From the NCBI GenBank assembly GCA_041650775.1, contig JBAZKO010000001.1:134008-198007 (forward strand): DNA of 64,000 bases, in the 5' to 3' direction. Source of the stretch: Patescibacteria group bacterium. Lineage in GTDB: Bacteria > Patescibacteriota > Patescibacteriia > Patescibacteriales > UBA12465. The notes under the pieces were generated by a model. It was not told the DNA's origin, ran no database searches, and saw nothing but the letters and a program-made list of their open reading frames with translations. Positions 2,523 through 50,204 of the stretch are shown here, piece after piece (position 1 is the stretch's first letter; each line of letters starts with the position of its first letter). A program made the translations under genes and the position numbers.

Positions 2523-2587
2523 AAAACGCGTAACGGCCGATTACCAAATCGGACACCGGTCTGGCCAATATCAAAATTGTCCCTGTT

Positions 2588-4348
2588 CTATTCCGATAAT
2601 CTTTCGATTTTATACAAACCGAACTTGGCGCTGGTTTTTCTGACTAATCTCAGTTTCAGCTTATAAGAAGATAATTTCCGTTCGTTAAGATAAACGACAT
2701 CGGCGTCATTCAGATAAAAATTATAATAATAGACCGGGTAATGTTTGCTTAATTTGGCGGCCGCCGTTAAAATTTCGTCGTTGGAAACAACACCCATAAT
2801 AACGCGGCGTTCGGGCCAAAAAAACTTATCGTGATAACGGGTGATGATAACCGCCGCCGGTTCGGTCATCGCCCACACCATTTCGGTATTGGCTCTTTCC
2901 GACTGGTTATTATAATACAGGTAAACCAAACCTTCCTCCGAACCAAAAAGGACGAAATTCAAAGACAAATAAGCGAAAACCAAAACAGCGGAAAACTGCA
3001 AACCAGTAGCGATTATTTTCCTGATTCGCGATACCGTTTCCGGACCGATAAGCAAAATCGCCCGGCTGACGCGCACTAAGGCTAAAGATGAGAGCGGAAT
3101 AAGCCATAAATAAATCGGCAACCAATAACGGGTATAGGAATTCCCGATGGTAAACCGCGTCAAATCAGGATTATCGTTAAATTTCCAACTGCCATAATAA
3201 AAAATCAGAAAAGCGCTAACAATCAAGCCGGACAGAAGATAAACCAGATACTTTTTTTTCCGCTGGCGGCAATATTTGACCGCTAATAACAACCAACCGC
3301 TTAAACCGGCGACGGAAAGAACCGAAAACATCTCCCAGATATAACGCCGGGACATTTCCAACGATTGGCTGTAATTAAAGCCAAAATAAAAAATATTGTG
3401 AAAAATCTGACTAAGGTAATGATAGTAGTAGCCAAACTGGCCGGTCCAAGTGAATCTTAACAAGTTGCCGCCGGTATTGACAATATCGTCAATCGACCGG
3501 TTCATTTCGTTATAACCGCCATGCCAAAAAGAACCGTATAAAATTTGGTTATAATAAGCGACCGGAACTAAAGCGAGGAACAAACCGGAAAAGAAAATAA
3601 TTAATTTCGTCGCGCCCAAACGGCGAGCGTAAAATAACCAAATTAAAAACCAGGCCGGCGCAAGCCATAATAGTTCCGAAGTGCGCGTTATCAAAGCCAA
3701 GCCGGCGAATAAGCCACTACCGAACGTAGCTAAAAATTCCAGCCATAAATGTCTCTTTAAAGTCCAGGCGACAAAAGGCCGGTCAGCTTTATCCCGCTTC
3801 GGTCCGAGCGCCAGGATGAAAAGATAGACAGCGGCCAGAAGCAAAAAGATAAATAGTATGTTATGGAACATCGACCGGGTCGTATAATAAATATAAACCG
3901 GAAATAAAGCCAAAATAAAAGCTGACCACAAGCCGACGCGGTTACCGAATATCCGCCGGACGATCAAATAAAAAAGAATTAAACCGACGGCGGCGAAAAA
4001 GGGCGTCAAGAAAGGGATAATCGCCAAGCCGAAAACGGCGGCCAGACTGCCGTAAATCAGAATGATTCCCAGGAAGCTAACCGGTTTAATCCAACCGGAA
4101 TCCGTGCGGACGCTCCGGGGCATAACCATATTATCACCGATGACGTTAGCCGGGTCAAAAAAAGCCAGCTGGCCGGTCGTGCTAAATTTTTTGGCAAAAA
4201 AATAATTAGCAGTTTCATCCGGCGACGACCACTTAACATAGTCCTTATCCTGTGATTGGTAATTAAAACTGGCGGTCGCGATAAAAAAAACCACCGCCAG
4301 CAGGCCGATTAACAATAAATTTATCTTTTTTTCTTTAATTATTTCCAT
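2588..4348 (-). CDS. polytopic GT-C-type glycosyltransferase (family 39 / ArnT / PMT-like)
   Basis: The long ORF opens with TTG at 4384; the first ATG is at 4348. It has many hydrophobic helices, an acidic SSPDE motif in the first extracytoplasmic loop as in ArnT/PMT-type enzymes, and a soluble C-terminal domain. Confidence 0.6.
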   Translation of the reverse strand: MEIIKEKKINLLLIGLLAVVFFIATASFNYQSQDKDYVKWSSPDETANYFFAKKFSTTGQLAFFDPANVIGDNMVMPRSVRTDSGWIKPVSFLGIILIYGSLAAVFGLAIIPFLTPFFAAVGLILFYLIVRRIFGNRVGLWSAFILALFPVYIYYTTRSMFHNILFIFLLLAAVYLFILALGPKRDKADRPFVAWTLKRHLWLEFLATFGSGLFAGLALITRTSELLWLAPAWFLIWLFYARRLGATKLIIFFSGLFLALVPVAYYNQILYGSFWHGGYNEMNRSIDDIVNTGGNLLRFTWTGQFGYYYHYLSQIFHNIFYFGFNYSQSLEMSRRYIWEMFSVLSVAGLSGWLLLAVKYCRQRKKKYLVYLLSGLIVSAFLIFYYGSWKFNDNPDLTRFTIGNSYTRYWLPIYLWLIPLSSLALVRVSRAILLIGPETVSRIRKIIATGLQFSAVLVFAYLSLNFVLFGSEEGLVYLYYNNQSERANTEMVWAMTEPAAVIITRYHDKFFWPERRVIMGVVSNDEILTAAAKLSKHYPVYYYNFYLNDADVVYLNERKLSSYKLKLRLVRKTSAKFGLYKIERLSE

Positions 4349-4407
4349 TACTCTAATGTTATCCGAAATTGCCAATTTTAGCAAGAATTTGTTATCATTA
4401 AGGTATT

Positions 4408-6435
4408 ATGAACAGATCAAAAACAAGTTGGCCTAAAATCGCCGAAAATATCAATAATCGGATGTTACTGCTTATATCTCTAACGGCCGTATTCGGGGCG
4501 GGAATCTACTATTTCTACTCTTTAAACCAGCGTGGAATTATCTTGTCTTTGATTTTAATTGTCGCCGGTTTTTATTTTTTTAAAAACCGACCGGGAATAT
4601 TCGGTCAAACCGTTAAAAATACTCCTGCGAAAAAAATCGCGACCGACACGGAAAACGAAAAAAAACCGGGGGCGGTCAATAAAAAAAATATCCTCCTAAT
4701 CTTAGGCTATACCGTATTTTATTCACTCCTGTTTTTCCGGCTTTGGTCCAGCCAGAGCGAACGCGCCTTGATTTCCCCTTGGGAGGTAGTAAATTATTCT
4801 TTTTTTTGGTTCTATGGCCTAAGTTCTCTGATTTTGATCTTCATTCTGATAAATAAAGAGATTGGCGGCGGTCTCAAAAAAATCTTTCTTTCCCTGCATT
4901 TTTTCCTGTCCTTCGCTGTCGCGATAATCATTTATAAAATCGGCTACGGTTACGATCCTTTCGTCCATCAAGCAACGATGGAGCTAATCGCGGCCAAAGG
5001 GTTAGTTCTGCCCAAACCGCCCTATTATTTGGGTGAATACAGTTTAATTGTCATAATACATAAAATCAGCGGATTATCTATTTACTGTTTGAATAAACTC
5101 CTGGTTCCCGGTTTGGCCGCCTTATTCCTACCGACAGCTCTTTTCCGATTCTTCAAAAATGTTCACGCGAAAGAAGCGGACAACCCGGCCGTTTCTTCAG
5201 CTTCCTTCTTGGCAATCTTATTTCTATTAATTCTGACTTTCTCTCCTTTTATTGTCACTACGCCGCAAAATCTCAGCTATTTATTCCTAATTTTAACTGT
5301 GCTGGCCGGTTTTAGCCGTGCCAGTCTGCCGGAAATACTCATACTGGCGGTCGCGACCGCGGCAATTCATCCTTTAACCGGCTTGCCAGCTCTGGGCTGG
5401 ACCGTCTGGCTGGTCTTTAAAAAATACCAAACAGCGCTGGCGCCAGTTTGGCAAAAAATCATCAAGTTCGCGATTTTTCTGTTCACGGCTCTGGCTCTGC
5501 CGTTCGCTCTGTTTTTTACCGGGGGGGGCGGTCTGAAAAAAATTGACGGCGGTTCATTATTGGAACCGATAAAAAGCCTTTTCGCCGGTCTTAGCCTGGC
5601 TGGACGGGAAGATTGGCTCCTGAATTTCGTTTATTTTTTTGCCACTAACTATAATCTATTGCTGATAATCGCCATCGGCGGCGGCTTATGGTATTTTTAC
5701 GGACGCCGCTGGAGAGATAAAATAACCGACGAAGATCGTGGCCTTTTTAACGGCCTAATTTTTATTAATCTTTCTCTGCTGATCGCCTATTTACTGAGCG
5801 GTCGAATTCTTTTTAATGATTTAATCAGCTACGAACAAGCCGGCTATGCCAGCCGAATACTGATAATCATGGTTATTTTTTTCCTGCCTTTTATTCTGGT
5901 AGCACTCCGGGGATTAATCCTAAAAATACGCCGCGCTGATCCGGCGATACGGACAAGCTGGCTGATTTTTGGCATCAGCCTTTTGACCGCCAGTCTTTAC
6001 GTTTCTTATCCCCGCTTCGATAAATATTTTAATTCGCGCGGTTATAGCACCAGTCAGAACGATATCGCCGCCGTTCTGGCAGTCGACCGCGCCGCCGGCG
6101 GTCCTTATATCGCGTTGGCTAACCAACCGGTGAGCGCCGCCGCCCTTCAATCATTCGGTTTTGATCATTACTATCAAGGATCAAACGGACAAATATATTT
6201 TTATCCGATTCCGACCGGCGGAGCGTTATACCAGTATTATCTTGAGATGGTTTACAAAAACCCCGACCGCCAAACCATGTTGAAAGCTTTGGACTTAGTC
6301 GGGGTCGATGAAGGCTACCTGATTGTCAACAAATATTGGTATCAGAGCGGCCGAGTAATAAACGAAGCGAAACTAACGGCCGACGATTGGCAAACGATAA
6401 ACAATGAAATTTATATTTTTCAATACGAGCGTTAA
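4408..6435 (+). CDS. large polytopic membrane protein with C-terminal soluble domain (possibly another GT-C-like enzyme)
   Basis: 675-aa ORF divergent from the previous gene. More than 10 hydrophobic segments, with a GYGYDPF loop after the early helices. No family assigned with certainty. Confidence 0.4.
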   Translation: MNRSKTSWPKIAENINNRMLLLISLTAVFGAGIYYFYSLNQRGIILSLILIVAGFYFFKNRPGIFGQTVKNTPAKKIATDTENEKKPGAVNKKNILLILGYTVFYSLLFFRLWSSQSERALISPWEVVNYSFFWFYGLSSLILIFILINKEIGGGLKKIFLSLHFFLSFAVAIIIYKIGYGYDPFVHQATMELIAAKGLVLPKPPYYLGEYSLIVIIHKISGLSIYCLNKLLVPGLAALFLPTALFRFFKNVHAKEADNPAVSSASFLAILFLLILTFSPFIVTTPQNLSYLFLILTVLAGFSRASLPEILILAVATAAIHPLTGLPALGWTVWLVFKKYQTALAPVWQKIIKFAIFLFTALALPFALFFTGGGGLKKIDGGSLLEPIKSLFAGLSLAGREDWLLNFVYFFATNYNLLLIIAIGGGLWYFYGRRWRDKITDEDRGLFNGLIFINLSLLIAYLLSGRILFNDLISYEQAGYASRILIIMVIFFLPFILVALRGLILKIRRADPAIRTSWLIFGISLLTASLYVSYPRFDKYFNSRGYSTSQNDIAAVLAVDRAAGGPYIALANQPVSAAALQSFGFDHYYQGSNGQIYFYPIPTGGALYQYYLEMVYKNPDRQTMLKALDLVGVDEGYLIVNKYWYQSGRVINEAKLTADDWQTINNEIYIFQYER

Positions 6436-45406: not shown

Positions 45407-46129
45407 TTAACCGCGAACCTCGCAGAGAGAGACATAATTTCTACCAATCTCCGCGAACTCCAACATTTCTTTATCCGAGTAGGCCTGTTGCGCCTGATAA
45501 TTTTTATCGACTAAATCCGTATCTGATTTAAATTTCTGTAAATACCATTTTGAGGCTCCCTTAATGATTTCCCCCATTTCCGAAAAATCTTTCTTTTCCA
45601 AGAGACCGGGAACAACCGTCGTTCGAAATTCATAAGGTAGGCCGCTAGCCATTATAATTTTAACACTTTTTCGCAGATTATTACAGTCAACCTTGACTCC
45701 GACCGCGTCTTCATATTTGGAAAACGGAGCTTTTAAATCCATGGCCAGGTAATCAAGCAAACCGGCGGCAATTAACTTCTGCAACATTTCGGGGTTAGTC
45801 CCATTGGTGTCCAGCTTGATAAGATACCCAATATCCTTAATTTCCTTAATAAAAGACGGCGAGTCGGGATGCAAGGTCGGCTCACCACCGGTAATGACTA
45901 CGCCCTCCAGACGGCCGAATCTTTCTTTTAAAAAAAGAAAAAGGTTTTCGGTAGAAATCGGAGAAAAACCTTTTTCTTTATTTTTTTTATCCCTTCCCTC
46001 GCGGGGCAGGACAAGCAGGGGGTTGTAACAAAAGTGACAACGGAAATTACACCCGCCGGTAAAGATTATAGCCGCTAGATGATCGGGGTAATCAAGAAGA
46101 GTCAGTTTCTCCAGTCCGCCGATAATCAT
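45407..46129 (-). CDS. nrdG: anaerobic ribonucleotide reductase activating radical-SAM enzyme
   Basis: 240 aa with cluster motif GGCNFRCHFCYNP and GGEPTL. It is adjacent to nrdD. Confidence 0.9.
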   Translation of the reverse strand: MIIGGLEKLTLLDYPDHLAAIIFTGGCNFRCHFCYNPLLVLPREGRDKKNKEKGFSPISTENLFLFLKERFGRLEGVVITGGEPTLHPDSPSFIKEIKDIGYLIKLDTNGTNPEMLQKLIAAGLLDYLAMDLKAPFSKYEDAVGVKVDCNNLRKSVKIIMASGLPYEFRTTVVPGLLEKKDFSEMGEIIKGASKWYLQKFKSDTDLVDKNYQAQQAYSDKEMLEFAEIGRNYVSLCEVRG

Positions 46130-46143
46130 AGGTTTAGAACAAA

Positions 46144-46281
46144 TTATTCGCTGACTTTAAAAGTCTTGCGATCTTTGTACTCGGCCGCTTTGCCGGGATT
46201 ATAGTTCTTAATCGGAGTCAGCCAACCGACGACACGGCTGTAAACAATGCACTCCTGTCTTTGGGTTTGAATCGGGCTCAT
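46144..46281 (-). CDS. 45-aa ORF carrying the class III RNR glycyl-radical C-terminal segment
   Basis: Hand translation: MSPIQTQRQECIVYSRVVGWLTPIKNYNPGKAAEYKDRKTFKVSE. It is in the same frame as nrdD, 6 sense codons after the nrdD TAA. The motifs SRVVGW and NPGK-E-R match NrdD C-termini. Confidence 0.7.
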   Translation of the reverse strand: MSPIQTQRQECIVYSRVVGWLTPIKNYNPGKAAEYKDRKTFKVSE

Positions 46282-46299
46282 ATATTCATTATTAATAAA

Positions 46300-48321
46300 T
46301 TAATTTTCTTTATAGCCGATTTCTTCATCGCATTTCGGACAATACTTGTGTTCGCCGGACAAATAACCGTGCTTAGGGCAAATCGAGAACGTCGGCGTAA
46401 TCGTAAAATAAGGCAGGCGGTAATTCTCCACGATTTTTTTCACCAACTTTTTGGCGGCATCGCCGTTAGGAAGACGTTCGCCCAGATAACCGTGTAGAAC
46501 CGTACCGCCGGTATATTTAACCTGCAAATCATCCTGCAAATCCAAGGCGGAAAAAATATCATCGGTAAAATTAACATGCAAATGAGTGGAATTGGTATAG
46601 TAAGGATTGGCGCCGGCTTTGACCGCTTCGTTGTTGGCGCAAATTATTCCCGGATAAAGCTGTTGGTCTTTCTTGGCGAAACGATAAGTACAGCCTTCGC
46701 CCGGAGTCGCTTCCAAATTATAAAGATTATTAGTTTCATTCTGGAAATCCATTAATTTTTCCCGCATAAAATCCAACATTTCGGCGGCGCAGGCATGTCC
46801 TTCGGGCGTCGAAATATCTTTACCCATCAAGTTCAAAACCGCTTCGTTCATGCCATTAATGCCGATAGTGGAAAAATGGTTTTTCCAATAACAACCGAAA
46901 CGTTGCTTCATATTCTCCAAATAGAACATTGAGTAAGGATAAAGATAATCATCAGTGAATTTTTCGATTATTTTACGCTTGATCTCCAGGCTCTCTTTGG
47001 CCAGTTCCATCAACTTCAACAGCCGTTCCTTGAACTCTTCTTTAGTCTTCGACAGATAGCCGATGCGCGCCAAGTTAAGCGTCACGACGCCCAAAGAACC
47101 GGTTAAAGGATTGGCGCCGAACAGACCGCCGCCACGCTTGCGCAATTCACGATTATCCAGTCTCAAACGACAACACATCGAGCGGGCGTCATCGCGATTC
47201 ATATCGGAATTAACGAAATTGGAAAAATAAGGGATTCCGTACTTGGCGGTCATTTCCCAAACTGGTTTCAAACATTCGCGGTTCCAATCAAAGTCCTTAT
47301 CGACATTATAAGTCGGGATTGGAAAACCGAAGACCCGGCCGGTCGAATCGCCGGCGAGCATTACTTCGGCGAAAGCTTGATTGAATATATCCATTTCCGG
47401 CTGAAAATCTTTATATTTTTCCGATTTGACTTCGCCGCCGATAATAATATTCTCTTCGCCAATCATCGGTGACGGAGTCACGTCAAGGGTGATGTTGGTA
47501 AACGGGGTTTGGAAACCGACGCGCGTCGGAACGTTAATATTAAACATAAACTCCTGCAAACCCTGTTTTACTTCCTTATAGCTTAAATTATCATAACGGA
47601 TAAAAGGCGCCAGATAGGTATCAAAATTGGCGAAGGCCTGCGCGCCGGCGGATTCACCCTGTAGGGTATAGAAAAAATTAATAATCTGACCAAGGGCACT
47701 TCGAAAATGCTTCGGGGCGTTGCTCTGAACTTTTTCGCTAACACCGCGAAATCCGCGGATTAACAAATCTTTCAAATCCCAACCGCAACAATAAGGCGCC
47801 AATAGTCCAAGATCATGAATATGAAAATCTCCTTGGACATGAGCCGCCCGGATATTTTCCGGATACATTTTATTAAGCCAGTAGCGCGCGGAAATCGCGG
47901 AAGCGATGTAGTTGTTTAGTCCCTGAACGGAAAAACTCATATTACTGTTTTCCTTCAGACGCCAATCGGCGCGACCCAAATAATCTTCCATTAGCCTATC
48001 ATCGGAAGTCGCGTTATTGATATCACGTAATTGACGATGCTGTTCGCGGTACAGGATATAAGCCTTGGCGATTTTAATGAGTTTACTTTCTATTAAAACC
48101 TCTTCCACAATATCCTGAACTTCTTCCACGGCCGGAATGCTGTTCTTATGGAATTTTTGGTTTAATTTGATAACGACCTGGTCATTAATTTTTTTAGCTA
48201 AATGACGGTCATCAACTCCTGTCGCTAAGGCCGCTTTGTAAATCGCTTTAGTAATCTTATCCTGGTTAAAATCAACGATTTCACCGGATCTTTTAATTAA
48301 TTTGCTGATAGTTTCTGACAT
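46300..48321 (-). CDS. nrdD: anaerobic ribonucleoside-triphosphate reductase (class III), main body lacking the glycyl-radical tail
   Basis: 673 aa with an N-terminal ATP-cone, a catalytic barrel (MCCRLRLD, NPYYTNS), and a C-terminal CPKH...CPKC ribbon. It ends at TAA 46300-46302. Confidence 0.92.
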   Translation of the reverse strand: MSETISKLIKRSGEIVDFNQDKITKAIYKAALATGVDDRHLAKKINDQVVIKLNQKFHKNSIPAVEEVQDIVEEVLIESKLIKIAKAYILYREQHRQLRDINNATSDDRLMEDYLGRADWRLKENSNMSFSVQGLNNYIASAISARYWLNKMYPENIRAAHVQGDFHIHDLGLLAPYCCGWDLKDLLIRGFRGVSEKVQSNAPKHFRSALGQIINFFYTLQGESAGAQAFANFDTYLAPFIRYDNLSYKEVKQGLQEFMFNINVPTRVGFQTPFTNITLDVTPSPMIGEENIIIGGEVKSEKYKDFQPEMDIFNQAFAEVMLAGDSTGRVFGFPIPTYNVDKDFDWNRECLKPVWEMTAKYGIPYFSNFVNSDMNRDDARSMCCRLRLDNRELRKRGGGLFGANPLTGSLGVVTLNLARIGYLSKTKEEFKERLLKLMELAKESLEIKRKIIEKFTDDYLYPYSMFYLENMKQRFGCYWKNHFSTIGINGMNEAVLNLMGKDISTPEGHACAAEMLDFMREKLMDFQNETNNLYNLEATPGEGCTYRFAKKDQQLYPGIICANNEAVKAGANPYYTNSTHLHVNFTDDIFSALDLQDDLQVKYTGGTVLHGYLGERLPNGDAAKKLVKKIVENYRLPYFTITPTFSICPKHGYLSGEHKYCPKCDEEIGYKEN

Positions 48322-48328
48322 ACCTGTA

Positions 48329-48787
48329 TTATTTCTTTTCGTTTATTAATTTATTTAACTCTTTTCTGAACTCATGGGCATCTTTGAAGGATTCATAAAC
48401 TGAGGCATAACGAATATAGGCGACCGGATCGACTCTTTTAAGGTTTTTCATCACTACTTGACCGATTTGTCGAGATGTAATTTCCGTCTTTTTCAGACGC
48501 TGGAGGTCGCGCTCAATGGAATGAATCAATTTTTTAAAACGATCTTCGGTAATTTGCCTTTTTTCGCAAGATTTCTTCAAACCGCTGACCAATTTATCCC
48601 GGCTATAAGATTCTCTTCGGCCATCGCGCTTGACAATAACCAAATCTAATAGCTCTATTTCTTCATAAGTGGAGAATCTAAAGCCGCATTTTAAACATTC
48701 CCGGCGGCGGCGAATAGACAAGCCGTCCGGAGCAACCCGGGAATCAACGACTTTTGTGTCTAAAAAGTAGCAAATCGGGCATTTCAT
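48329..48787 (-). CDS. nrdR: transcriptional repressor NrdR
   Basis: 152 aa with zinc ribbon MKCPICYF...CLKCGFRF followed by an ATP-cone. Confidence 0.95.
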   Translation of the reverse strand: MKCPICYFLDTKVVDSRVAPDGLSIRRRRECLKCGFRFSTYEEIELLDLVIVKRDGRRESYSRDKLVSGLKKSCEKRQITEDRFKKLIHSIERDLQRLKKTEITSRQIGQVVMKNLKRVDPVAYIRYASVYESFKDAHEFRKELNKLINEKK

Positions 48788-48802
48788 ATCTTAGGCTTAA
48801 AA

Positions 48803-48818
48803 ACCCATATTTTGTGGC
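48803..48818. promoter_or_regulatory. NrdR box 1 (promoter-distal from -10, proximal to ATG)
   Basis: On the minus strand, GCCACAAAATATGGGT resembles the NrdR-box palindrome acaCwAtATaTwGtgt. Its centre is 32 bp from box 2. Confidence 0.6.
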
Positions 48819-48834
48819 CTTTTTAAAAAATTGA

Positions 48835-48850
48835 CCACTAAATGTTGTAT
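48835..48850. promoter_or_regulatory. NrdR box 2
   Basis: On the minus strand, ATACAACATTTAGTGG (plus-strand CCACTAAATGTTGTAT) starts 9 nt downstream of the -10. Confidence 0.65.
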
Positions 48851-48858
48851 CTATATTT

Positions 48859-48887
48859 ATTTTAGCAAATTTTGATGTGCGGGTCAA
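48859..48887 (-). promoter_or_regulatory. nrd operon promoter TTGACC-17-TAAAAT
   Basis: Minus strand: -35 at 48887-48882 and -10 at 48864-48859. Confidence 0.65.
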
Positions 48888-48949
48888 TTTAGCTAATCTT
48901 TAAAAAAATATAAAAAAATTATGAAGTTATCCACAGAAATTTATATAAT

Positions 48950-48980
48950 AAAATCTGACCTTATAGGCGGTCAGATTTTA
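48950..48980 (-). terminator. intrinsic terminator after ftsZ
   Basis: AAATCTGACC-N8-GGTCAGATTT with flanking A/T runs, about 30 nt after the ftsZ stop. Confidence 0.8.
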
Positions 48981-49010
48981 TTATATTCTATATTCTATCA
49001 AATATTGTAA

Positions 49011-50204
49011 TTACCCCATTTTTTTCCGAATAAATGCCGGAACGCTTAAATCATCGTCTTCACTATTGCTCGGCCGCTCCGCTTTCTTTTCCAGAGCCGG
49101 TTTAACAGGGATATTCCTAAACACCGAAAATTTTCCTTTGTTTTTATCGATATTGGCACTGGGTGCCGCTTCTTTCTCGTTCTCTTTTTCGATTATAAAA
49201 GCATTGGGAGTATAAGAAGATTTAATCGTTTCGCTCTTCTGGCTTTTGCCGCGACCGTCAAAACCGGTCGCCACTACCGTAATCTTAATGGAATCTTTCA
49301 TCTTTTCATCGATTACGGCGCCGAAGATAATCTTAGCGTCCTCATCGGCCGCCGAAGTTATAACCTTCGCCGCCTCGCTTACTTCCGTCATACTCAAATC
49401 CGGACCGCCGGTAATCGTAAAGACGATGCCCCGGGCGCCATCGATGGACATATCTAATAAATTAGAGTTAATGGCATCCTTGGCGGCTTCTATGGCCTTA
49501 TTCTCGCCTGTGGCCTGCCCGATACCCATCAGAGCCGAACCGGCGTTGGCCATAACGGCTTTGACATCGGCAAAATCAGCGTTAATGATACCGGGAACGG
49601 TAATTATCTCAGCAATACCCTGCACGCCCTGGCGCAAGACATCGTCGGCCGTTTTAAAGGCTTCCAAAAGCGAGGTTCTCTTGTCAATAACCTGCAATAA
49701 TTTATCATTGGAGATAGTAATGATGGTGTCGACTTTATCGGCTAATTCCGAATAAGCCCGATCAGCGATATTTTTCCGCTGTCCGCCCTCGAACATAAAA
49801 GGTTTGGTAACGACCGCTACGGTTAAAGCCCCTAAATCTTTAGCAATTTGCGCGATAATCGGGGAAGCACCGGAACCGGTACCACCGCCTAAGCCGCAAG
49901 TGACAAAAACCATATCGCAACCCTTTAAGACTTCACGGATTTCATTTTGCGACTCTTCAGCCGCGCCCTTCCCCAAATCCGGATTCATACCCGCGCCCAA
50001 ACCCTTGGTTACGGTTTTACCGATATGGATTTTCTCGTTAGCTTTATTATAATGGAGTGCCTGAACATCGGTATTAATCGCGACGAAACCGACGCCTTTA
50101 ATGCCGTTTGCGACCATACGATTAATCGCACTACCGCCGCCGCCGCCGACGCCGACCACTTTTATTTTAGCAAAAGTTTCAATTTCCGGTTTTACTTCAG
50201 CCAT
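49011..50204 (-). CDS. ftsZ: cell-division GTPase FtsZ
   Basis: 397 aa with the tubulin signature GGGTGSGASP, an NTD motif, and the C-terminal peptide DDLSVPAFIRKK. Confidence 0.98.
   Translation of the reverse strand: MAEVKPEIETFAKIKVVGVGGGGGSAINRMVANGIKGVGFVAINTDVQALHYNKANEKIHIGKTVTKGLGAGMNPDLGKGAAEESQNEIREVLKGCDMVFVTCGLGGGTGSGASPIIAQIAKDLGALTVAVVTKPFMFEGGQRKNIADRAYSELADKVDTIITISNDKLLQVIDKRTSLLEAFKTADDVLRQGVQGIAEIITVPGIINADFADVKAVMANAGSALMGIGQATGENKAIEAAKDAINSNLLDMSIDGARGIVFTITGGPDLSMTEVSEAAKVITSAADEDAKIIFGAVIDEKMKDSIKITVVATGFDGRGKSQKSETIKSSYTPNAFIIEKENEKEAAPSANIDKNKGKFSVFRNIPVKPALEKKAERPSNSEDDDLSVPAFIRKKMG

Follow-up and report, generated by a model that had tools for sequence, protein, structure and literature searches.

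How could an anaerobic ribonucleotide reductase work if a stop codon parts its catalytic body from the glycine that should carry its radical? This question is raised by the nrdD locus of a Patescibacteria group bacterium (GCA_041650775.1, contig JBAZKO010000001.1), which lies in a stretch of 64,000 nt (positions 134,008-198,007 of the forward strand). This whole stretch is called the window here, and coordinates refer to it. The 673-aa NrdD open reading frame (ORF) stops at 46302-46300 and is followed by a 45-codon ORF for the glycyl-radical segment, exactly as a first-pass annotation of the sequence had described. That annotation offered several explanations, namely read-through or recoding, recent pseudogenisation, a sequencing or assembly error, and a genuinely two-piece enzyme with a detachable glycyl-radical peptide. 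The last of these is strongly supported by comparative data, and we conclude that the product of the locus is very likely a class III (anaerobic) ribonucleotide reductase (RNR) that is split by nature into two subunits.

Profile searches place the break past the zinc ribbon and before the radical loop. In the 562-position Pfam profile NRDD (PF13597), positions 1-529 align with the large ORF (E = 2.6e-181) and positions 530-562 with the small ORF (E = 8.9e-7). The NCBIfam model NF006126 is partitioned in the same manner, with positions 3-650 of 684 on the large ORF and 649-683 on the small ORF. Because both profiles split cleanly across the two ORFs, the small ORF is not a chance reading frame. 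With 1024 bits, the large ORF is well above the NF006126 cut-off of 548; it also matches the ATP-cone family (PF03477, E = 1.6e-19), and has the barrel, MCCR and zinc-ribbon features of class III NrdD (PF13597; NF006126/TIGR02487). The radical loop R-[VI]-x-G-[YWF] of that class is missing from the large chain and is present when both ORFs are taken together. Class II RNR models match the large ORF only in the ATP-cone region (residues 4-102), and the best-matching families are all class III. The large ORF ends ...CPKCDEEIGYKEN-TAA, just past the zinc ribbon, which is the last conserved element of this subunit. The small ORF starts with ATG at 46281 in the same frame as nrdD and encodes MSPIQTQRQECIVYSRVVGWLTPIKNYNPGKAAEYKDRKTFKVSE in 45 codons. 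Across the junction, the minus strand reads TGT CCG AAA TGC GAT GAA GAA ATC GGC TAT AAA GAA AAT TAA TTT ATT AAT AAT GAA TAT ATG AGC CCG. An exact look-up of the 673-aa protein returned no record; strains differ from it by a few residues.

On the T. maritima NrdD (4coi), the large ORF maps up to residue 610 and the peptide maps to residues 614-645. When only the C-terminal 100 residues of the large ORF were compared with the PDB, no match was obtained, so this mapping rests on the large-ORF and peptide-profile alignments. In the profile of the small peptide, Gly19 aligns with Gly621 of T. maritima (Y-M-R-I-V-G621-Y) and Gly711 of P. copri (R-I-T-G711-Y), and this glycine is invariant across 56 and across 77 aligned homologues. 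A search of the large ORF for a second radical motif was negative. Its sole R-x-x-G-F string is RVFGF at about residue 326, within the barrel, and the glycine of this string is not conserved (L084 reads KVFPF at that site). The earlier claim that the large ORF lacks the catalytic glycine thus stands. Neither Pfam nor NCBIfam holds a family dedicated to the small protein.

The same organisation is found in related genomes. An identical junction is present in three metagenome assemblies of the same species, each made independently and from its own sample (JGI 3300014204, JGI 3300037067 and ENA ERZ27247358), which share 96.9-98.7% DNA identity with the window. A scan with the large ORF over one genome per species (GTDB) gave 80 Patescibacteria loci, mostly from Falkowbacteria, with 77-92% amino acid identity. 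The junction is contained in 78 of these loci, and the contig ends before it in the other 2. In all 78, the large ORF stops shortly past the zinc ribbon and is followed by a separate ORF that starts M-[SA]-P and encodes ...RQECIVYSRVVGWLTPVKNYNPGKASEYKDRKTF..., so that the alignment of related loci proposed in the first-pass annotation finds both the stop and the downstream methionine start kept throughout. The small ORF lies in frame 0, 1 or 2 relative to nrdD in 32, 23 and 23 of the 78 species, and the spacers measure 11-193 nt, with a median of 70. TAA is the upstream stop codon in 64 of the 80 loci, TAG in 15 and TGA in 1. The gene nrdG adjoins the small ORF in 79 related loci, and the complete chromosomes CP066698.1 and OW818634.1 carry the split organisation (the complete chromosomes retrieved are 0.90 and 0.98 Mb). 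A search with the peptide recovered 105 homologues in relatives, every one of 40-69 aa. Among 77 species, the nonsynonymous divergence of the small ORF (pN) is 0.10 and the synonymous divergence (pS) is 0.79 (pN/pS 0.13), a level at which synonymous sites are saturated, and the entropy at codon positions 1, 2 and 3 is 0.34, 0.25 and 1.23 bits. These substitution patterns show strong purifying selection on the small ORF.

The spacer of the window can be compared with those of L004-L006 and others, relative to which a deletion of about 77 nt took 9 codons of the tail, the old stop codon and the upstream half of the spacer with its -35 element. What is left in the window is thus a remnant of a longer spacer. 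We attribute the in-frame layout of the window to this deletion having hit an already split locus. The in-frame 18-nt arrangement is thus, by this comparison, special to the window lineage and the frame match a coincidence. In view of this deletion and of the three frames seen among the 78 species, the description of nrdD as interrupted by one in-frame TAA gives a wrong impression. Many Falkowbacteria spacers (L004-L083) contain a conserved sigma-70-like promoter, TTGTAATTT-N-TAATTTATAAT (TTGTAA-N17-TATAAT). A -10-like motif occurs in 46 of 79 spacers, compared with 10.9 +/- 2.9 in shuffled sequences. These results suggest that, in relatives with a spacer promoter, the small gene and nrdG can be transcribed apart from nrdD. 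The window has lost the internal promoter of the relatives, so that the nrdD transcript probably serves for translation of the small ORF here. A Shine-Dalgarno-like motif (positions -18 to -5) precedes only 3 of the 40 long ORFs (>= 200 aa) of the window, and starts follow A/T-rich sequence. The small ORF, whose ATG likewise has an A/T-rich context, is thus no exception in this genome, which appears to initiate translation largely without Shine-Dalgarno pairing.

These comparisons also bear on the other explanations. Programmed read-through or recoding of the in-frame TAA, which would give a functional single-chain NrdD of 725 aa, draws on the in-frame arrangement of the ORFs, 18 nt apart, in the window and its near-identical strains. 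Fused relatives with long linkers exist as well (L160), and a read-through product would probably be active. A conserved frame would however be required for read-through as a general mechanism, and neither the frame nor the stop context is conserved. All three relative frames occur, the variable spacers often hold extra stops and a promoter, and the methionine start of the small ORF is conserved throughout. Recoding also meets the observation that the other genes of the window are long, densely packed and normal under the standard code, and no suppressor tRNA is found among the three tRNAs of the window (tRNA-Gln(TTG), tRNA-Gly(CCC) and tRNA-Thr(CGT)). We therefore regard read-through as very unlikely and exclude it as a general mechanism. 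An alternative genetic code or a suppressor tRNA was considered separately and rejected, given the long and dense ORFs under the standard code and the three tRNAs present. A recent nonsense mutation that left nrdD as a decaying pseudogene would account for a stop codon before an essential radical domain, yet it is highly improbable that a split common to lineages with saturated synonymous sites, and with so low a pN in the small ORF, is recent. Conservation in 78 species-level genomes and purifying selection refute it, and the large ORF scores far above its NF006126 cut-off next to intact nrdG and nrdR. For a sequencing or assembly error there is only the prior that single in-frame stops are sometimes artefacts. 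With the identical junction in three independent assemblies and the same organisation in 78 other genomes, complete chromosomes included, the chance of such an error is negligible.

Two further explanations accept the small protein as functional. It might be a spare part, like GrcA, that mends an oxygen-cleaved full-length NrdD encoded elsewhere, in which case the truncated large ORF would not be its normal partner. Rescue of this kind is established for pyruvate formate-lyase (PMC8683613), and orphan small genes away from nrdD do exist, mainly in phages. In cells, however, the small genes almost always adjoin an nrdD that breaks off exactly at the corresponding boundary and itself lacks a radical loop, no full-length nrdD was seen in the 8-kb loci, and the Falkowbacteria genomes are small. 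We consider this explanation unlikely. Alternatively, the two polypeptides could be linked again once made, be it by a split intein or some other form of ligation. Inteins apparently occur in nrdD genes of relatives (LAGLIDADG-type, 1106-1147 aa; L088, L120 and L168), and the small-peptide profile weakly matches DnaE split-intein chains in the PDB (E = 0.2-0.4), but these matches are at chance level. The tail of the large ORF extends only 9 residues past the ribbon and only about 10 residues of the small ORF precede its core, which is too short for intein halves, and Pfam finds no intein or Hint domain in either ORF. Re-joining therefore seems most improbable, and the locus is best read as encoding two subunits that remain separate.

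We then consider how widely the split form is distributed. A profile search of 1.84 billion representatives (50% identity level) gave 4,373 matches, of which the best 150 are all 40-115 aa long and nearly all begin with methionine. They share the core R-x-x-C-E-V-Y-S-R-V-V-G-[YWF]-L-x-P-V-x-x-W-N-x-G-K-x-x-E-F-x-D-R-K-T-F, around which the N- and C-terminal extensions are unrelated. At E <= 1e-5, a second profile matched 7,929 clusters of the 90% identity level; its top 120 matches are 47-72 aa long. Such short ORFs have already been labelled 'anaerobic ribonucleoside-triphosphate reductase' by annotation pipelines. The arrangement of genes was determined in 80 metagenome loci that share the core motif. 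NrdD is fused in 31 of them, the order is nrdD-small-nrdG in 21 and nrdD-nrdG-small in 4, and nrdD-small without a visible nrdG occurs in 2. Clear orphan small genes account for 3 loci and other arrangements for 3, and the flanks are too short to tell in the remaining 16. Like the window, L001, L088 and L089 have the order nrdR-nrdD-small-nrdG; in L088, nrdD is 1147 aa long with an apparent intein and there is a 4-nt gap. A metagenome-assembled genome (MAG) labelled Candidatus Methylomirabilis has nrdR-nrdD, 147 nt, then small-nrdG. The order nrdD-nrdG-small, with a good Shine-Dalgarno sequence before the small gene, is found in L084/L085 and a whole clade, among them GC-rich contigs of 2.6-3.1 Mb, where the 687-aa NrdD ends ...CPKCDEEMGY... 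without a radical loop. The taxonomic breadth outside Patescibacteria rests on this one MAG and these contigs.

Fused and split forms differ in the segment between the ribbon and the loop. In fused relatives, CPxH...CPxC is followed by CEVYSRVVGY after only 1-9 residues. Split large subunits end C-D-[EK]-E-[IM]-G-[YF] plus a short tail, which fused relatives do not have, and stop/start coupling (GGN*M) is present in L119, L100 and L104. The C-D-[EK]-E-[IM]-G-[YF] ending is common to members of different clades (L084, L100, L104, L119, L121, L135, L143, L162, L169 and the window at 46303-46329), and it is possible that it acts as a docking element for the detached peptide. In a neighbour-joining tree of 49 core sequences, split forms fall in at least three separate groups and beside fused sisters. 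Because fused and split forms interleave on this tree, the radical domain seems able to function either within the NrdD chain or in trans, and on these data the two forms coexist among close relatives. With no support values on the tree, repeated fission and fusion of nrdD is indicated rather than proven. In the fused 731-aa protein of L160, a long linker (...CPRCDRELYPIPHMNIKKQQLPRDMKQRQRCEIYSRVVGY...) is combined with a split-type tail and an internal methionine; this protein looks like a secondary re-fusion of a split pair. Related nrdD genes of 1106-1147 aa occur in both split and fused form (L088 at 2553-5996, L120 and L168). The extra length of L088 holds a faint LAGLIDADG-type match inside the NRDD domain, consistent with an intein, and an intein in L120 and L168 is inferred from their length only. 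In P0109 and P0163 the radical core occurs twice in tandem (e.g., ...CEVYSRVVGYLSPVSHWNEGKKEEWEVYSRVVGYLSPVSHWNEGKKEEW...), and these may be real duplications or assembly artefacts. Taken together, the sequence comparisons show a two-gene arrangement that is genuine, of long standing, maintained by selection and widely distributed, with a small gene that moves independently of nrdD.

The small gene is also found in viruses. In IMG/VR, 352 stretches encode the peptide, and among the best 80 loci (L174-L253), 69 have the small ORF with no nrdD or nrdG within 5 kb. The orphan phage peptide genes encode 40-110 aa (e.g., L206:5000-5141, L245:4952-5156, L241:5000-5147 and L228:1012-1150). Their neighbours encode the terminase large subunit and portal protein (L206 and L245), a UvsX-like recombinase (L241) and a terminase (L228), and the L228 peptide starts with MSPIQVKRQEC, as is typical of Patescibacteria. 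Two metagenome orphans (L156 and L173) adjoin genes for a major head protein and a primase. Carriage of the small gene alone fits a peptide that acts in trans with the core and activase of the host, and the phage orphan looks like an unrecognised, very small auxiliary metabolic gene, for which it should be considered a candidate. In a subfamily frequent on phage contigs, the radical core is preceded by a conserved extension of the N-terminus, E-N-G-D/N-L-x-L-D-D-G-T-V-I-P-A-E-K-R (P0130, P0197, P0210, P0225, P0232 and P0247; L185, L208-L213, L223, L243, L245 and L253). Perhaps this extension forms a hairpin and takes over a contact for which other members use the zinc ribbon. The archaeal (ANME-1) virus ANMV-1 (KP703175.1) encodes a 144-aa protein (AJP62049.1, L093:2680-3114) with an expanded zinc ribbon and a radical loop (...CPKCF...CEMYSRIVGYLRPVNQWNKGK...), and the annotation shows no large nrdD in the 3 kb to each side of its gene. 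Similar small proteins with a zinc ribbon are P0142, P0198, P0238, L161 and L226. These ribbon-bearing proteins indicate a second split point, upstream of the ribbon.

The locus resembles known systems in part. Its domain content and order are those of canonical single-chain NrdD with NrdG (T. maritima 4COI, P. copri 8P23 and phage T4 1H78), and it shares with canonical class III RNR the R-[VI]-x-G-[YWF] loop, a neighbouring radical-SAM activase and NrdR. Its MCCR resembles the SCCR/MCCR finger-loop motif described for the T. maritima-type subclass NrdDh (PMC4493059). Unlike in canonical NrdD, the radical loop is a separate gene product and the large subunit ends in a C-D-E-E-[IM]-G-Y tail instead of continuing into CEVYSR. 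Glycyl-radical enzymes have been described with the radical glycine on the C-terminus of the catalytic chain (PMC13450708, PMC8683613). The first-pass annotation compared the small protein to GrcA/YfiD, and as an analogy this is apt. GrcA/YfiD and the phage T4 protein Y06I are likewise small stand-alone radical-loop proteins that presumably act in trans on a barrel protein after radical-SAM activation, and phage-encoded copies are known for both the GrcA/YfiD-type and the NrdD-type proteins. The comparison does not extend to homology. The peptide is homologous to the C-terminus of NrdD and not to the pyruvate formate-lyase (PFL)-type Gly_radical domain (PF01228; IPR011140), and a Pfam scan of the small ORF at E <= 0.1 gave only NRDD, with no Gly_radical match. 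It is also only 45 aa long, whereas YfiD is 14.3 kDa (PMC8683613). Nor does it extend to a spare role. GrcA coexists with a full-length enzyme, whereas the adjacent NrdD is loop-less in the window and 78 relatives, and as the sole radical domain of its enzyme the peptide would be obligate.

Splitting has been described in other RNR classes. As cited in PMC9669993, the class II RNR of Pseudomonas aeruginosa is split into NrdJa and NrdJb (Crona et al. 2015), and there too a C-terminal functional module is on a second adjacent gene in a conserved subclade. That class is B12-dependent, and the detached part there is an IscU-like plus zinc-finger domain that shuttles reductant, not a radical element. 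The combination of a NrdJ barrel with an IscU-like/zinc-finger subunit is not found at the locus studied here. The NrdA of Aeromonas phage Aeh1, a case of 'genes-in-pieces' from Friedrich et al. in 2007, is reportedly split by a homing endonuclease gene and works as two polypeptides. That case concerns class I, a mobile endonuclease insertion and one phage, whereas the nrdD pieces have no mobile element between them and their split is widespread. According to a 2026 review, formate lyases alone have identified spare-part radical proteins (PMC13450708), and Andorfer et al. (2021) speculate that other spare-part proteins may exist (PMC8683613). The RNR phylogeny papers examined make no mention of a split NrdD, and to the extent that the literature was checked, the split NrdD appears to be undescribed.

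How, then, might the two pieces work together? In the mechanism that we propose, the 673-aa core would provide the ATP-cone, the ten-stranded barrel with the MCCR cysteine finger loop, and the zinc ribbon, and the separately translated 45-aa peptide would bring the radical glycine, Gly19 in SRVVGW. NrdG would abstract the C-alpha hydrogen of Gly19 from the free or docked peptide. The peptide would dock non-covalently in the barrel of the core, at the site that the covalent C-terminal domain has in fused NrdDs, and the radical would move from Gly19 to the finger-loop cysteine for ribonucleotide reduction. Several points weigh against this reading. That the small ORF is translated, and that its product binds the core and is activated by NrdG, is deduced from comparative genomics, and a second full-length nrdD is possible in the genome outside the visible 64 kb. 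The neighbour-joining tree carries no support values. The search that found no description of a split NrdD or of an NrdD-type stand-alone radical protein covered the open-access literature, with subscription journals and RNRdb outside it.

What the split could offer is a matter of speculation. It is possible that oxygen cleavage at the radical glycine costs only the 45-aa piece, and one may also speculate that the activase has easier access to the glycine loop. We tentatively extend this to a peptide that serves as a consumable, exchangeable radical cofactor, a reading that we hold possible, though not probable. The peptide would be transcribed separately, charged by NrdG, loaded into the core and replaced after oxygen cleavage while the 77-kDa core is reused, and phages would carry the peptide gene alone to recharge or take over the anaerobic dNTP supply of the host. 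Separate transcription is conceivable because many relatives have a promoter just upstream of the small gene.

The features of the locus are collected in Table 1. As was stated in the first-pass annotation, nrdG and nrdR are intact. NrdG matches Pfam Radical_SAM (PF04055, E = 8e-24) and Fer4_12, and bears GGCNFRCHFCYNP, in which C-NFR-C-HF-C forms the CX3CX2C motif of NrdG-type activases. The nrdR product matches Zn_ribbon_NrdR (E = 8e-20) and ATP-cone (E = 6e-19). The NrdR boxes, which the same annotation took to look intact, are at most putative. No match to the strict NrdR-box consensus was found near the operon, and by eye there are two degenerate box-like sequences, ACAACATTTAGTGG and CCACAAAATATGGG, at 48800-48860, upstream of nrdR. 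They lie about 31 bp apart, as tandem NrdR boxes usually do. Between ftsZ and nrdR stands a palindrome of 44 nt (ATATAATAAAATCTGACC...GGTCAGATTTTATTATAT; 18-bp stem), which receives a terminator score on either strand. Lying upstream of the nrd operon, it is probably a terminator for both directions or a hairpin with a regulatory role.

Table 1. Position of the split nrdD, its parts and its neighbours in the window
Feature	Position	Strand	Remarks
nrdG, radical-SAM activase	45407..46129	minus	240 aa; start 14 nt beyond the small ORF
Gene for 45-aa glycyl-radical peptide (predicted small subunit)	46144..46281	minus	span includes TAA 46146-46144
Gly19 codon, predicted radical glycine	46225..46227	minus	S-R-V-V-G-W; from profile alignment
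Inter-ORF spacer	46282..46299	minus	18 nt, AT-rich, TTTATTAATAATGAATAT; F-I-N-N-E-Y in the nrdD frame
nrdD, predicted core (large) subunit	46300..48321	minus	673 aa; span includes TAA stop 46302-46300
Zinc ribbon of NrdD	46330..46380	minus	C648-P-K-H651 ... C661-P-K-C664; read from sequence
Finger-loop motif MCCR in the catalytic barrel	47178-47167	minus	residues 382-385
ATP-cone of the large ORF			residues 8-96
nrdR, transcriptional repressor of nrd genes	48329..48787	minus	152 aa; opens the nrdR-nrdD-small-nrdG cluster
Palindrome	48943-48986		44 nt
ftsZ	49011-50204

The split organisation accounts for the short ORFs, thousands in number, that carry the label 'anaerobic ribonucleoside-triphosphate reductase' and for the neighbouring nrdD genes that look 'truncated'. 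Annotation and pseudogene filters that expect one full-length NrdD could mis-handle split genes, and this would matter for metabolic reconstructions of Patescibacteria. The finding also points to a very small, previously unrecognised candidate auxiliary gene of phages. If the two-subunit reading is true, the pair would be a minimal system for studying how activases recognise and charge a glycine loop, how the loop enters the barrel, and whether oxygen-damaged enzymes can be recharged. If the peptide is moreover a consumable cofactor, class III RNR would have a detachable radical subunit in many lineages, loosely like the radical-generating subunit of class I.

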